From a phage, in assembly GCA_033648345.1 (NCBI GenBank), contig GCA_033648345.1_4121.1: a stretch of 64,000 nucleotides of DNA; one strand, 5' to 3'. Every line of letters starts with the position of its first letter. Within the stretch, counting starts at the first letter, position 1. Both the position numbers and the translations under genes were made by a program. This document shows, one piece after another, positions 1-64,000 of the stretch. Below the pieces are notes generated by a model, which saw nothing but the letters and a program-made list of their open reading frames with translations, ran no database searches and had not been told where the DNA came from.

Positions 1-240
1 CAAAACAGGCAACATTCGGTGGCTTGTGTAAATATGAGGACTAAACATATGTTGATTTACCAATGTGATAACATTCGTGTTATGCAGCATCCCTACTTAC
101 AAATCTTTGATGTGCAGCAGTATATGGAAGGTGATGACCCAAGAACCTATGGTCGTAAGTATGATTACTTCACTGTAAAGCAGTGTCATAACATCAAAGA
201 AGTACGACAATTAGTTCAAGAACTTCAAAATAAAGGTTGA
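1..240 (+). CDS. hypothetical protein (5' end outside window)
   Basis: Frame open from position 1; stop 238-240 lies inside hairpin terminator 235-252. Confidence 0.5.
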   Translation, partial: QNRQHSVACVNMRTKHMLIYQCDNIRVMQHPYLQIFDVQQYMEGDDPRTYGRKYDYFTVKQCHNIKEVRQLVQELQNKG

Positions 241-266
241 CTTCGGTCAACCTTTTTTGTTATAAT
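235..266 (+). promoter_or_regulatory. UUCG-tetraloop terminator hairpin with embedded -35 and downstream -10
   Basis: GGTTGAC-TTCG-GTCAACC + T6; TTGACT inside stem; TATAAT 261-266. Confidence 0.7.
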
Positions 267-295
267 TATTTCATCAACTACTGGGGATTTTAATT

Positions 296-736
296 ATGTA
301 CGTATATCGTTTTGAACTTAAATTCAGTTATATTGAACCTAACTTAGATCCAGCAAAAACAGTAGGGCCGTTCGCACGGTACTCTTCACGATACAGTACT
401 AAAAATGGATTTGACCGTTTGTGCATGACCACGCCTTCGCAATTCCAACCAGAACCAACTGAAGATGGAATCTATTCAATCAAACGTGGCTGGGCATTTG
501 GCTGTCAGAGTTTGAATGATTTGTTTAAGTTCTTTACTATGGACTTGGGTAAATTACATCGTGCAGGGTTTGCTGTATCAGTATATGAAGTTCCTGATAA
601 TCATGTTGACATTGGTCGTAGTCAGGTTCAGTACTATTGTGGTAGTGCCAATCTGGTTCGTATTATGTCAGTGAGAGAAGCAAAGGATGAGTACCGCCAA
701 AGTAAAAGAGTAATACATGAGGCTGTATATGGATAA
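296..736 (+). CDS. hypothetical protein
   Basis: 146-aa ORF, GGGGA 8 nt upstream of ATG, downstream of promoter module. Confidence 0.7.
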   Translation: MYVYRFELKFSYIEPNLDPAKTVGPFARYSSRYSTKNGFDRLCMTTPSQFQPEPTEDGIYSIKRGWAFGCQSLNDLFKFFTMDLGKLHRAGFAVSVYEVPDNHVDIGRSQVQYYCGSANLVRIMSVREAKDEYRQSKRVIHEAVYG

Positions 737-1073
737 GACTCAAATAGAATTAAAAAAATTTGTATCGTTTTATCTACCCAATGACCCACGTTGTACACAA
801 TATGATGTTGCATATTACAATGCATTGACTACACAGTTAATGAAGAAATTCAAACAGTGTTTGACTGTATTCAATGATGATGGTAGACGTAGATATAGAA
901 TCATTCCAATGAATGATGAAAACGATAACTACTTTGACTTTGATGTTGTTTTTCGAGCATACAATGATGATAGAATAAAATTAAATTATGAGCAAATAAT
1001 GCTTGACCTGAGTGTTATCTGTGTTATAATTACTCACATAGCCGAACTTGATGGTTTAAAAGAATGGTATTGA
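729..1073 (+). CDS. hypothetical protein
   Basis: ATG 729 overlaps upstream stop; track start 717 is a non-ATG extension. Confidence 0.6.
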   Translation: MDKTQIELKKFVSFYLPNDPRCTQYDVAYYNALTTQLMKKFKQCLTVFNDDGRRRYRIIPMNDENDNYFDFDVVFRAYNDDRIKLNYEQIMLDLSVICVIITHIAELDGLKEWY

Positions 1074-1087
1074 CTTAGAGGATAATC

Positions 1088-1354
1088 ATGAAGCTTAAAT
1101 TACAATACAATGGTTTTACTTTGCGTAACGACACTGAGTTTGTCAATCGTTCACCAGGTGCTGAGTTGTTTTTGCGAGAGATGAACATTCCTTTCGTCAT
1201 CACTACTGTTGGTGACCGTGAAGTTCTACAATACGCAGAGCATCCAGTTATTGATGTTCCGTGGTATTCTGAGCATATGTATATGGATATGGCCCGTCGC
1301 TACGACTGTAAGTTCGTAGTTGAAGGTGATAAAATTACAGTCCAATTCAAATAA
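1088..1354 (+). CDS. hypothetical protein
   Basis: 88-aa ORF, AGAGGA RBS upstream. Confidence 0.7.
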   Translation: MKLKLQYNGFTLRNDTEFVNRSPGAELFLREMNIPFVITTVGDREVLQYAEHPVIDVPWYSEHMYMDMARRYDCKFVVEGDKITVQFK

Positions 1355-1365
1355 GGTAACTTAAA

Positions 1366-1659
1366 ATGATCAGTACTTCAGTAAATGCAAGCATCGTGGC
1401 AGACGTAGAAATGGTTAAAGAATGTACAGACGAAACCCTTCGCAACATGTACATCAACGATTTGATTTCAGAGTACGGAAGTCGTGGTGTTCATGAGTTT
1501 GTTCGCCTGAGCGGTGAATTGATGAAGAATCGCATTCGTATGAAGCTTAATGTGCATCCAAAAGCATGGGCGTTTACAATGAAGTACGCTGAAGATATTG
1601 TTGAGTTGCGTCGCAATGATGTGTATAATCGTTTACACAATGGTACATTAAAGGACTAA
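1366..1659 (+). CDS. hypothetical protein
   Basis: 97-aa ORF, AAGG RBS, followed by hairpin terminator. Confidence 0.7.
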   Translation: MISTSVNASIVADVEMVKECTDETLRNMYINDLISEYGSRGVHEFVRLSGELMKNRIRMKLNVHPKAWAFTMKYAEDIVELRRNDVYNRLHNGTLKD

Positions 1660-1664
1660 ATTAT

Positions 1665-61865: not shown

Positions 61866-62231
61866 ATGAATCCATCATCTAATAAATGTGGTACTTCCTT
61901 TAATGTAGAATGGTTATTTTTTAAACCCACATCTACTATAAAATCATTCATTGCTGATATCACTGAAGCACCTGACACCCTTGTATCAGTTGTTAACAAC
62001 AATAACGAAATGGTATTTTCTATTGATGAAAATCAATATGCAGATATCTATTCATTGAGTCGTATAAAAAACTTAGTTGTACTGTCCGAGAAAGCGTTCG
62101 CAAAAGAAGCGAAGAAATGGGATTTTAAACTTCCTATTGAATTGGTACGTGAAATACAAAAATTGGGATGTACTACTATTGAGAATTGTAAAGACTCACG
62201 TGCTACTGGGAATATTTCATTTGAAGTATAA
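61866..62231 (+). CDS. hypothetical protein
   Basis: 121-aa ORF, AGAGG RBS, TTGACT-N16-TAATAT upstream. Confidence 0.7.
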   Translation: MNPSSNKCGTSFNVEWLFFKPTSTIKSFIADITEAPDTLVSVVNNNNEMVFSIDENQYADIYSLSRIKNLVVLSEKAFAKEAKKWDFKLPIELVREIQKLGCTTIENCKDSRATGNISFEV

Positions 62232-62317
62232 TGCATTTATATGAACAAAACATCTTGACATCATGCCTCACATGGGGTATGATGTTTTTTCACATATGAA
62301 CCTATGGATTTTATCCT

Positions 62318-62515
62318 ATGCGTATTTTAACTAAAGAACAGCACCACGAAAGACTTATCAATAACATGGCTATGATAATGTATAAGTCCCATGACCGTGG
62401 TATTGCATATAAGCGTGAATTGGTTATGGCACTATTCATTGGAACTAACTTTCAGGAAAGGTATGTCAAGGATTGGATTTGGTATTTAATTGAAGATATA
62501 ACGAGTAAACTATGA
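62318..62515 (+). CDS. small protein, GTNYQ tandem family 1
   Basis: MRILTKEQ...FIGTNFQERYV..LIEDITSKL; TTGACA-N17-TATGAT upstream. Confidence 0.7.
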   Translation: MRILTKEQHHERLINNMAMIMYKSHDRGIAYKRELVMALFIGTNFQERYVKDWIWYLIEDITSKL

Positions 62516-62712
62516 AAATGCGTATTTTAAATAAAGAAGAATATCAATCACTGTTACGTAAAAACTACGTAAAGATTTACAACACAGACACACACGTAGA
62601 ACGAATGGAGTTATACCTTTTGATTACATTGGGAACAAACTATCAGGGTAGATGGGTGTGGCAATATATGGATACATTGAAAAATAAAATATTGTCCACG
62701 AGGAAACAATGA
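62512..62712 (+). CDS. small protein, GTNYQ tandem family 2
   Basis: MKMRILNKEE...LGTNYQGRWV; ATGA overlap. Confidence 0.7.
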   Translation: MKMRILNKEEYQSLLRKNYVKIYNTDTHVERMELYLLITLGTNYQGRWVWQYMDTLKNKILSTRKQ

Positions 62713-62918
62713 AAACTATAACACGAACCCAATCATTAGGTCTTATCTTGAAATACATGGACTTAATGTTGGATATCAGCAAAGACCTTCCTAAAACTGA
62801 AATCCAAGTTGCAAGAGCAGAGATCCGCATGTTAGCTGTACTGAACACAAACCATCAGGAAGAGTATGTTGACGATTGGATTCGATTTTTAATAGAAGAT
62901 ATTAAGAGTAAACTATGA
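62709..62918 (+). CDS. small protein, GTNYQ tandem family 3
   Basis: ...VLNTNHQEEYV..LIEDIKSKL; ATGA overlap. Confidence 0.7.
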   Translation: MKTITRTQSLGLILKYMDLMLDISKDLPKTEIQVARAEIRMLAVLNTNHQEEYVDDWIRFLIEDIKSKL

Positions 62919-63130
62919 ATATCATTACAAACTCAAATCAATATACCGAACGCGTCGCTGCCAGACAACTTGAAATTCTCATAGTATATGAAGAGACTGA
63001 TGATTTGAACTTAGCATTAGTATTGGAAAATGATATACTATTGGGTGCATTCCTCGGCACAGATTATCAGGAGCACTTCTTGAATGAGTATATAATTGCA
63101 CTCCAGAAATACATTAAGAGCAAACTATGA
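62915..63130 (+). CDS. small protein, GTNYQ tandem family 4
   Basis: ...FLGTDYQEHFL..YIKSKL; ATGA overlap. Confidence 0.7.
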   Translation: MNIITNSNQYTERVAARQLEILIVYEETDDLNLALVLENDILLGAFLGTDYQEHFLNEYIIALQKYIKSKL

Positions 63131-63345
63131 AACATTTAAGTAACTCCGAGAAGAATAAAATTATCATTGCTGCAATAAACAAATATTTTACACTTCCTCA
63201 CACAGAAGGTTTATGTGTAAGGGAACACAGGATAAACACCACCGATATACGCATGATGGCTGTACTGGGGACGAACTTTCAGGAAGAGTATGTTGTTGCA
63301 CACATAGTTGCCCTCACTGATCTAATAAGGGACAAATGCAAATGA
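63127..63345 (+). CDS. small protein, GTNYQ tandem family 5
   Basis: ...VLGTNFQEEYV; ATGA overlap. Confidence 0.7.
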   Translation: MKHLSNSEKNKIIIAAINKYFTLPHTEGLCVREHRINTTDIRMMAVLGTNFQEEYVVAHIVALTDLIRDKCK

Positions 63346-63560
63346 AAGACATAAACACTCAAGAATATCTTAAACGATTAGAACAAGGGAAGAACTTTAG
63401 ACTTCAAGTTTACGATGATGAATCACTAACATCCAATGAAAAGTATGTTATACTAACAGACTCAACATTAATACCATTTGTAGGAACAAACTATCAGGAG
63501 GTTATGGTAGACAACCACATCACGGCCTTAAAATGTCATGTCAGGGATTTAGGTAAATGA
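63342..63560 (+). CDS. small protein, GTNYQ tandem family 6
   Basis: ATG 63342 gives the family-typical ATGA overlap; ...FVGTNYQEVMV. Confidence 0.65.
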   Translation: MKDINTQEYLKRLEQGKNFRLQVYDDESLTSNEKYVILTDSTLIPFVGTNYQEVMVDNHITALKCHVRDLGK

Positions 63561-63814
63561 GACGCTTAACACAAGATGAATATGAAACTATAGTTCGTAA
63601 ACTAACCCCCGTCGCCAGTATAGTCTACGATGACCCCAGCCTTACATGGAACCAAATGCGAGCTAAAGTTAATGAGCTATGGTTGCTGTACTTTATGGGG
63701 ACTCAATATCAAGATAAGTTTTGCACAGAATATGTCGAACAATTAATGAATGTTATACAGGATAAACTAGATGATTATTGGCTCACAAAACATGAAGACT
63801 TTATCAGGAGTTGA
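63557..63814 (+). CDS. small protein, GTNYQ tandem family 7
   Basis: MRRLTQDEYE...FMGTQYQDKFC. Confidence 0.7.
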   Translation: MRRLTQDEYETIVRKLTPVASIVYDDPSLTWNQMRAKVNELWLLYFMGTQYQDKFCTEYVEQLMNVIQDKLDDYWLTKHEDFIRS

Positions 63815-64000
63815 GTATCAAACTGCCCTATTCTCTTTAATCCATACCCTTAGAAAAAACAATGCCTTACATGGTGCACCTGAAGTGGATGTTATCAACG
63901 GTGAACTTTATCTTATGAAATTCATTGGAACAAACTATCAAGATCTGTTCATTCAACGATACTTGGCAGCATTAAGAAACCAAATCCAATATAAAACCCA
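63792..64000 (+). CDS. small protein, GTNYQ tandem family 8 (3' end outside window)
   Basis: MKTLSGVEYQ...FIGTNYQDLFI; frame open to the window end. Confidence 0.6.
   Translation, partial: MKTLSGVEYQTALFSLIHTLRKNNALHGAPEVDVINGELYLMKFIGTNYQDLFIQRYLAALRNQIQYKT

Follow-up and report, generated by a model that had tools for sequence, protein, structure and literature searches.

The palindrome AGTACT occurs 275 times, or 4.3 times per kb, in a 64,000-nucleotide stretch of phage DNA (contig GCA_033648345.1_4121.1; hereafter the window), where dinucleotide-preserving shuffles yield 22.3 ± 4.7 copies and never more than 35. Composition and codon use do not account for the word, which is a selected signal at the DNA level: purifying selection maintains the exact hexamer genome-wide, in genes and between them, and its enrichment is a character of the Rak2-like phage clade of Enterobacterales. 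Our leading, though tentative, explanation is that AGTACT is the recognition word of a putative clade-specific reader of double-stranded DNA, which would control early promoters and mark phage DNA.

AGTACT is the most frequent hexamer of the window

A first-pass annotation, made from the letters alone, had described AGTACT as massively over-represented, and counting bears this out: 275 copies stand against ~22 expected, the word ranks first among all 4096 hexamers in DNA of 36% G+C, and no other palindromic hexamer exceeds ~3x. Markov models predict 21.6 copies at orders 0 and 1, 47.8 at order 2, 101.9 at order 3 and 228.7 at order 4, the maximal order. The resulting observed-to-expected ratios (O/E) are ~12.7-12.8 for orders 0 and 1, 5.8 for order 2 and only 1.2 at maximal order. 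The last value is low because these same sites also supply the sub-words AGTAC, GTACT and GTAC: AGTAC (373x) and GTACT (371x) lie mostly within the hexamer, and GTAC is found 605 times against 213 expected. The annotation had held that a ratio near 1 after correction for di- and trinucleotide composition would speak against its claim; the corrected ratios are 12.7 and 5.8.

The copies are found in all kinds of sequence. Intergenic or gene-boundary DNA holds 93 of them (9.7 per kb) and coding DNA 182 (3.3 per kb), the latter in all three codon phases (81/34/67), as the annotation had noted for several frames. Its count by eye of 18-19 copies between 40.2 and 42.0 kb was close: the mostly non-coding stretch 40200-42000 holds exactly 19, with ~0.6 expected. 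The highest coding density in the window belongs to an array of ~20 small paralogous genes of 59-77 amino acids (34967-39973, plus strand), with 38 copies, 8.5 per kb, in phases 13/12/13; about eight of these copies encode a conserved [K/E/Q]-Y-Y motif near the N-terminus. The paralogues share just an N-terminal M-N-x-K-E-Y-Y and a C-terminal hydrophobic L-I-x-x-Y, and the proteins returned no Pfam match. The related form GGTACTAATATG, which had been singled out at gene junctions, is present there as a minor element of three copies.

The bases around the word are symmetric, with C at -1 and G at +1 (47% each), T-rich positions -3/-4 and A-rich positions +3/+4. The two flanks nevertheless vary independently of each other: the extended form CAGTACTG, with 0.7-3 copies expected at low order, occurs 63 times, against 60.5 predicted from the separate flank frequencies. 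The extended form TTCAGTACTGAA occurs seven times.

By Megablast, the window falls among the jumbo coliphages of the Asteriusvirus group (121Q, PBECO4, vB_Ec-M-J, WPEC3, JP4), with a best identity of 98% and no more than ~60% of the window covered by any single record. We derived the layout by aligning the window to vB_Ec-M-J, which has an annotated direct terminal repeat (DTR) at 1-21,525, and by collinearity with fEgEco12, whose DTR measures 20,993 bp (PMC13070987). Positions 1 to ~40,300 are the right-hand part of the unique genome and run from diverse small genes through an RCC1-like gene array (15.9-34.9 kb, minus strand) to the small paralogue array. The DTR, an early-gene region densely filled with short genes behind sigma-70-type promoters, spans ~40337-61727 (plus strand); its left boundary is inferred from the collinearity with fEgEco12 and its right boundary from the alignment to the annotated repeat of vB_Ec-M-J. 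The left-hand unique region begins at 61.7 kb and continues to the end of the window at 64 kb. AGTACT peaks in the DTR (142 copies, 6.5 per kb), which also holds most of the sigma-70 promoters that carry the word.

The exact hexamer is under purifying selection

Shuffling synonymous codons within genes leaves 56 ± 7 of the 182 coding copies and permuting codons leaves 26 ± 5; the coding excess is present in each of four sub-regions. Together with the use of all three phases, these shuffles rule out a codon or dipeptide artefact. Duplicated genes and promoters were tested by grouping sites with at least 70% identity over 30 flanking bases, which sorts the 275 sites into 223 clusters, 206 of them singletons. 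With 223 independent contexts, duplication of paralogues or promoters cannot account for the excess, which remains ~10-fold after duplicates are collapsed.

Conservation was measured by aligning the window to three relatives of 85-92% identity. AGTACT sites are perfectly conserved in 73%, 67% and 87% of cases, compared with 48%, 44% and 69% for all hexamers. Substitutions affect 5.2% of positions inside AGTACT and 9.1% in the ±30-bp flanks of the same sites (Fisher p = 5e-8, three relatives). The footprint of this constraint is exactly 6 bp: positions 1-6 change at 3.4-6.8%, the adjacent positions -1 and +7 at 12-14%, and positions further out at ~9%.

The substitutions and near-miss words also bear on how the excess arose. 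Changes from C to T within AGTACT are not a hotspot (15 of 83 substitutions). In the window, seven of the nine classes of one-mismatch neighbours are themselves enriched 1.4-2x, including AGTATT/AATACT at 1.4x, while ATTACT/AGTAAT matches expectation (0.96) and AGGACT/AGTCCT falls below it (0.44). No strongly depleted neighbour was found in the window, RaK2, GAP32 or CBB, although the values differ somewhat between them. Repair of the very-short-patch type, which would be recognised by a strongly depleted one-mismatch precursor, is rejected on these counts, and the combination of no such neighbour with no C-to-T hotspot makes a repair-driven or deamination-linked origin unlikely.

These data leave very little room for the view that the excess is a neutral by-product of mutation bias, of biased, very-short-patch-like repair or of the amplification of paralogous genes and promoters. 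Some inflation of the count by paralogous arrays and repeated promoters is evident from the 223 clusters for 275 sites, but the ~10-fold excess that survives collapsing, the higher conservation of sites than of flanks with its 6-bp footprint, the undepleted neighbours, the fixed positions in promoters and the conserved zero-copy islands inside an otherwise rich genome (both described below) all contradict it. We consider this explanation largely refuted already and rate it as highly improbable.

Two fixed positions in early promoters

Relative to the -10 element TATAAT, AGTACT shows two sharp peaks: one in which it ends 1 base before the -10 (1-2 bases in the strong early promoters of the DTR), within the spacer, and one in which it ends 21-23 bases before it, where it abuts or is fused to the -35 hexamer. 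The same two peaks appear in the window, JP4, GAP32 and CBB, which include genera with essentially no DNA similarity. The copies that the first-pass annotation had noticed in spacers at the -10 and upstream of the -35 are real, in the contexts CAGTACTGTATAAT, CCAGTACTGGCATAAT, AGTACTTGCAA and AGTACTATTGACA, and GAP32 and CBB keep the same placement.

Of the 48 sigma-70-like promoters in the window, 32 contain AGTACT once or twice: 19 have the upstream copy, 19 the spacer copy and six both. About 55 of the 275 sites (20%) occupy the two promoter positions, and across genomes AGTACT pairs 20-23 bp apart are enriched 4-5 fold. A two-site early promoter on the plus strand, AGTACT-A-TTGACA-N9-AGTACT-GG-CATAAT (48243-48284), has its sites at 48243 and 48265, 22 bp apart, and recurs identically with sites at 48537 and 48559. 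Another, AAAAGTACTTGCAA...AGTACT-G-TATAAT (45140-45172, plus strand), has sites at 45140 and 45160. AAAGTACTTGCAAACTAAGTTTAAAAGCGTATAAT (42454-42487, plus strand) exemplifies the promoters with the word fused to the -35. Among context classes the 12-mer AAAAGTACTTGC is the largest (13 copies), and it is found 10 times in GAP32 and eight times in CBB. CBB promoters as a rule have the two-site form: AAAAGTACT-TGCAA/TTGACA-N9-10-(G)AGTACT-T-TATAAT. AGTACT stays fixed relative to the -35 and -10 while the spacer around it varies, as is expected of an operator or promoter element.

A second class of promoters is free of AGTACT. These are compact terminator-promoter modules of the pattern GGGTTGACTTCGGTCAGCCC-TTTTT(G)-N-TATAAT, in which the -35 hexamer lies inside a G+C-rich, terminator-like hairpin with a T-run. 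They are found at 3827, 4483, 7244, 11607 and 12491, also at 236, and in related form near 50520, 54530, 57800 and 60250. The copies in the DTR precede a conserved ~60-nt element that ends in GCCCACCGGGTGCA, possibly a small RNA; scanning the window, this element included, against Rfam and for tRNAs returned nothing.

Enrichment follows a phage clade and is absent from a host sample

We compared phages by zero-order O/E, for some genomes by region. The window (~12.7-12.8) is matched or surpassed by the early region of JP4 (18.4), by GAP32 from Cronobacter (15.2) and by CBB from Pectobacterium (16.0). Lower but pronounced excesses are seen in the whole genome of EC22.5-2 (7.7; 913 copies against 119 expected), in UE-S1 (7.5) and ph0011 (7.4), in the structural/metabolic region of the Klebsiella phage RaK2 (7.1), in Erwinia phage pEa_SNUABM_12 (6.0) and in Salmonella phage Munch (5.5). 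All tested relatives that infect Enterobacterales, six lineages with O/E of 5.5-18, therefore share the excess. By genus, the enriched phages are Asteriusvirus, Alcyoneusvirus, Mimasvirus, Eneladusvirus and the Munch group. The excess is absent from PA5oct of Pseudomonas (0.2), Atu_ph07 of Agrobacterium (0.1), XacN1 of Xanthomonas (0) and T4 (0.7), and RsoM2USA likewise counts among the unenriched phages. In PA5oct, Atu_ph07 and XacN1, whose hosts lie outside Enterobacterales, AGTACT is under-represented, with three copies against ~24 expected in 75 kb combined. Within EC22.5-2, density falls from ~7 per kb in the DTR to 2-3 across most of the genome and to 1-2 in the late region.

The host chromosome contrasts with this: a 50-kb sample of E. 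coli K-12 has three copies where 11.6 are expected, so that the density on phage DNA is ~70x that of the sample. The enrichment has apparently not been described before. Full-text searches, and papers on CBB, PA5oct, RaK2, Sharanji, fEgEco12, SlmA and giant-virus methylomes together with a jumbo-phage review, do not mention it; the GAP32 paper (Virology 2014) lies outside this scope, so that an earlier description is not fully excluded.

The exact coincidence with Enterobacterales hosts would also be expected if AGTACT were the site of a host protein that the phage exploits or titrates, such as the nucleoid-occlusion factor SlmA, with the site GTGAGTACTCAC built around the same six bases, or TrpR, with the half-site GTACT. 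The SlmA consensus does contain AGTACT, but binding strongly requires G, T, A and G at positions 1, 2, 4 and 5 and a purine at position 3 (PMC3020112). The phage sites lack these flanks: over all 275, position -1 is C in 47%, T in 24%, A in 19% and G in 10%, so that purines are depleted there and C or T makes up 71%, positions -2 and -3 are at background, and GAGTACTC is absent (0x), which rejects a hijacking of SlmA. The TrpR operator consists of two inverted GTACT half-sites with 8 bp between them, which would place AGTACT starts 14 bp apart. In five genomes there are zero pairs at this distance, and CTAG is not preferred after the word, which dismisses this candidate as well. T4, which grows on the same host, has no enrichment. 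We regard a host protein as an unlikely reader of the word.

Islands without AGTACT and a strand-polar variant

AGTACT stops abruptly where the DTR ends. The last copy in the window lies at 61598, and the remaining 2.3 kb, in which 8-10 would be expected at the local rate, has none. This island (61728-64000) begins at the DTR end and contains zero AGTACT, zero AGTACA and five TGTACT. It is homologous to a ~4.5-kb segment, zone A, of vB_Ec-M-J, EC22.5-2 and TH47, in which zone A is followed by a 3.5-kb AGTACT-rich cluster and then by the 8-kb zone B. Zones A and B lie at 3525-8300 and 11000-19000 of the vB_Ec-M-J segment 18001-58000, and at 50-66 kb of EC22.5-2. A recent horizontal origin of the AGTACT-free tail is ruled out, as it is shared only with Asteriusvirus relatives.

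Zone B has zero AGTACT although GTAC stays at 5-15 per kb, and its commonest hexamer is AGTACA, with 46 copies on the plus strand and none on the minus strand. Zone A has the opposite polarity (nine TGTACT, one AGTACA). The genes of both zones all lie on the plus strand. The AGTACA copies of zone B occupy all three codon phases and intergenic DNA, in genes that are mostly mutually unrelated, and the sites are conserved (45 of 54 at 87% identity) without interconversion with AGTACT. In some places, then, the word functions in a one-stranded form. The polar islands are present in the three Asteriusvirus genomes and absent from CBB, GAP32 and RaK2.

With the motif on the bottom strand to the left of the cluster and on the top strand to its right, the arrangement looks like that of a polar signal centred on an origin; origin-like features were not obvious by eye in the cluster between the islands. 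One interpretation is that one-stranded AGTAC(W) is the functional unit and is read by a machine moving along the DNA, for example a long-site primase, or a helicase-nuclease or translocase for which it would serve as a Chi- or KOPS-like signal. The palindrome would then place the signal on both strands for forks that may come either way, and a fixed direction would leave it on one strand only. The perfect polarity of the islands, its flip across the 3.5-kb cluster among co-directional genes, the origin-like geometry and the conservation of AGTACA without exchange with AGTACT agree with this, as do the genome-wide spread of about one word per 380 bp, roughly the scale of Okazaki fragments, and the fact that the word is clade-specific and rare in the host sample. 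However, such a unit leaves unexplained the two fixed promoter positions, the 22-bp pairing across genera and the doubled density of the early region, and constraint on the palindrome is as strong at positions 1 and 6 as at its centre. The polar islands are seen in Asteriusvirus only, and not in CBB, GAP32 or RaK2. Primase sites would not be expected to show active avoidance of the opposite orientation, and known primase sites are trinucleotides (GTC for T7, GTT for T4).

We give a one-stranded unit a low probability. In its broadest form, which we put forward with the same reserve, AGTACT and one-stranded AGTACA might together be a "self-DNA code" of the clade, read by a direction-dependent enzyme such as a replicative primase specific for a hexanucleotide, or a nicking or translocating enzyme. 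Were this so, a primase of this kind would confine the phage replisome to phage DNA, with the palindrome serving both strands; the polar islands beside the DTR would mark a fixed origin or a one-way zone, and the promoter copies would couple early transcription to the same reader.

Two-copy stems in terminators

Because AGTACT is self-complementary, any two copies can pair. The first-pass annotation had seen the word in the terminator stems of the RCC1-like array, and this is confirmed for 9 of the 14 intergenic regions, where the stem consists of two AGTACT copies, e.g. GCCAGTAC..GTACTGGC. The intrinsic terminator at 24050-24072 on the minus strand, GCCAGTACT-C-AGTACTGGC followed by a T-run, is built in this way. 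A hairpin between convergent genes at 15834-15868, CCAGTACT-ATAAT-AGTACTGG, includes sites at 15843 and 15854.

The word might on this evidence have been selected as a building block of secondary structure, for hairpins in terminators or mRNA. Pairs 7-11 bp apart are also enriched 2-3 fold. Yet this accounts for only ~15 of the 275 sites, while 206 stand alone as singletons, each in a context unrelated to the others; no covariation of the flanks extends the stem; and the other terminators and 5'-UTR hairpins of the window are free of AGTACT. The opposite polarity of the variant in two islands of like gene orientation further argues against a function at the RNA level. Selection for structure is therefore a most improbable explanation of the word as a whole. 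The two-copy stems would be a secondary use of a self-complementary word.

A putative dimeric reader of AGTACT

The annotation had offered three options for the word: a protein binding site, a modification target or a structural element; it had also remarked that the pattern runs opposite to restriction avoidance. A selected DNA-level signal is upheld by our data; the structural element covers only the terminator stems. The annotation had missed the distribution over the whole clade, the ~21-kb DTR with its peak density, the abrupt stop at the DTR end and the strand-polar variant.

From the observed promoter geometry and selection we infer a reader protein, most likely encoded by the Rak2-like jumbo phages of Enterobacterales themselves and acting as a symmetric dimer. 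A dimeric reader fits best because the selected hexamer is exact and symmetric, the two-site arrangement around the -35 is conserved, and the word contrasts with host DNA. The symmetric and independently varying flanks are what two equivalent half-sites on duplex DNA would show, rather than a longer stem; at promoters, the 20-23 bp between copies amount to about two helical turns and so place both on one face of the helix. In the model, a dimeric protein would bind each copy of AGTACT. At promoters, two dimers would bracket the -35 hexamer and the spacer and so switch early transcription, most simply by shutting it off once the reader has accumulated. The ~900 other sites per genome would enable this protein to coat phage DNA, or mark it, preferentially over host DNA.

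Several observations weigh against this model. Pfam and PHROGs scans of ~50 proteins (the large proteins of the window, the small-protein array, conserved early proteins and the neighbours of the phage sigma factor) found no DNA-binding or methyltransferase domain, and ten conserved early proteins match only PHROGs families of unknown function. The methyltransferase or helix-turn-helix protein that the annotation had suggested as a candidate reader is thus not found among the window's proteins. A structure model of a basic early protein of the family phrog_8127 (see below) has no informative structural neighbour and no recognisable DNA-binding fold. An exact 6-bp unit with free flanks is more typical of restriction-modification enzymes than of helix-turn-helix regulators, and ~900 sites outside promoters would titrate a simple repressor, so the protein would need to be abundant. 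Apart from the promoter pairs 20-23 bp apart, no long-range or helical periodicity of spacing, as in a regular array, was found. Finally, a plain symmetric binding site leaves unexplained the conserved islands with zero AGTACT and strictly one-stranded AGTACA (46:0).

The only matches in the domain scans were an HNH/NUMOD4 homing endonuclease, a ParE-like domain and a sigma-70-like factor. These phages are reported to encode their own sigma-70-family factor (PMC5259590), and our scan identified its regions 2-4. The family phrog_8127 is restricted to exactly the AGTACT-rich clade, which by itself is weak evidence for a reader. In the DTR of the window it comprises a basic early protein of 88 amino acids (42862-43128) and its paralogue of 134 amino acids (55876-56280). 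Directly downstream of the latter, 56342-56596 encodes a protein with a ParE-like toxin domain (Pfam E = 5e-11).

Alternatively, AGTACT may be the target of a phage-encoded enzyme of the restriction-modification type, namely a methyltransferase, another base modifier or a nicking enzyme. Dense sites would then mark phage DNA as self or set a pattern of nicks, the promoter copies could tie early transcription to the modification state of parental versus replicated DNA, and the half-palindromic AGTACA would be acted on in one strand only. The exact 6-bp footprint with free flanks resembles that of Type II sites, AGTACT being the ScaI site, and polar AGTACA islands would be natural for modification or nicking of one strand. 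These phages carry several methyltransferases (PMC5259590, PMC3622015, PMC11895373), among them a Dam-family enzyme common to GAP32, CBB, the Erwinia phages and Asteriusvirus.

On the other hand, no enzyme of this specificity emerged from the window proteins or from the methyltransferases considered in the clade. The N6-adenine methyltransferase encoded beside endonuclease V in ph0011 occurs in that phage only and is missing from the window, and the small Dam-family methyltransferase, common to Mimasvirus (GAP32, CBB), the Erwinia phages and Asteriusvirus, belongs to a family present in 513 phage records and is too widespread to be informative; neither was retained as a reader. RaK2 DNA is reported to behave as Dam/Dcm/CpG-type methylated DNA and not as DNA modified at AGTACT (PMC3622015), and fEgEco12 DNA is cut as predicted by 10 enzymes, ScaI not being among them (PMC13070987). 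We found no ScaI or RsaI digest and no methylome for these phages in the literature. The lack of a C-to-T hotspot (15/83) also disfavours modification, as does the excess itself, since over-representation is not normal for modification targets.

Binding and modification are not separable from sequence alone. Weighing all of this, we place the dimeric reader first, as the best candidate but a provisional one, and modification or nicking second, as a possibility we doubt; the one-stranded signal follows with a slightly smaller share and the host protein behind it, and structural and neutral origins come last together.

Comparison with known systems

The closest functional analogy is to the DNA uptake sequences (DUS/USS) of Neisseria and Haemophilus, short words that are many-fold enriched in and between genes, mark the species' own DNA and often form inverted pairs that double as terminators. 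AGTACT likewise forms terminator stems and has ~70x the density of the host sample, and it shows the genome-wide, selected excess in coding and non-coding DNA, with rarity in foreign DNA, by which such a word is recognised. Uptake sequences differ in being non-palindromic, 9-12 nt long and read by the bacterial competence machinery, whereas AGTACT is a 6-bp palindrome of a lytic phage, fixed inside promoters; the uptake machinery is inapplicable to a phage, and the analogy is one of function only.

The functional model proposed for the AGTACT reader is that of TF1 of phage SPO1, a phage protein that prefers phage DNA, binds early promoters and represses them as it accumulates. TF1, however, reads hydroxymethyluracil-containing DNA with a loose sequence preference; here the word is a defined hexamer, and neither an HU-like nor another binding protein was found among the proteins scanned.

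With Type II sites such as that of ScaI (AGT^ACT), the word shares an exact 6-bp palindrome and free flanks, but restriction sites are normally avoided in phages and AGTACT is the most frequent hexamer here. GATC offers a precedent for a methylation target that is locally enriched, occurs in promoters and couples expression to replication. AGTACA and TGTACT resemble Chi and KOPS in being fully strand-polar and in flipping across a point as around an origin, and in T7 primase 5-nt extended sites can matter; the main word itself is palindromic, has no polarity and is tied to promoter geometry, and the polar islands occur in one genus. SlmA sites have identical central six bases, palindromic symmetry and a dimeric reader (PMC3020112), but the outer positions required by SlmA are not enriched here, and GAGTACTC does not occur.

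AGTACT is thus a functional genome signature word that belongs to none of the DUS/USS, TF1, Dam/GATC and Chi/KOPS systems, and that matches the definitions of a restriction-modification site and of an operator only in part.

Other features of the window

The window contains 21 hairpins of the form GGGGR-N4-12-YCCCC between 42480 and 60480, mostly between the conserved start region TATAATGTTTTACATC and the ribosome-binding site of the DTR early genes. These 5'-UTR hairpins may stabilise mRNA or mark it for processing.

The E. coli Chi octamer GCTGGTGG is present in 11 plus-strand and two minus-strand copies, with ~0.2 expected. Ten of the plus-strand copies lie in the DTR (40905, 47405, 51899, 52408, 53360, 54608, 56965, 58562, 60141 and 60364) and one at 9219; the minus-strand copies are at 40893 and 47343. 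Several sit in terminator-like hairpins, and they may protect the linear genome ends from RecBCD.

The stretch 39974-41452, presumed to be the left genome end, is mostly non-coding and carries short tandem repeats (GGCTGGGTGGCTGGGTGGCTGGGTGGCTAGACG..., GTAATCAT-type and AGAGTGTAAT-type); it may hold terminus or packaging signals. In the JP4 record (PQ330092 108000-157000), the DTR-homologous region occurs twice in tandem, ~20.1 kb apart, at ~14.7-28.4 kb and 34.9-48.5 kb of this segment. The repeat was probably assembled in the middle of the record instead of at its ends.

The HNH/NUMOD4 homing-endonuclease gene (4513-5055) contains no AGTACT, and is too short to be informative about recent acquisition.

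Implications for the Rak2-like phages

More than 80% of the genes of these phages have no known function. A dedicated reader of AGTACT, should there be one, would represent a new global regulator or DNA-marking system in widespread 350-kb phages that are under development for therapy, and the word itself provides a bait for the protein. The analysis also yields a precise early-promoter consensus, AAAAGTACT-TGCAA/TTGACA-N9-10-AGTACT-N1-2-TATAAT, and a signature by which the clade can be identified in metagenomes. The AGTACT-free polar islands next to the DTR may point to a replication origin or another directional process. More broadly, phages are held to avoid short palindromes, and AGTACT clearly runs counter to that rule.

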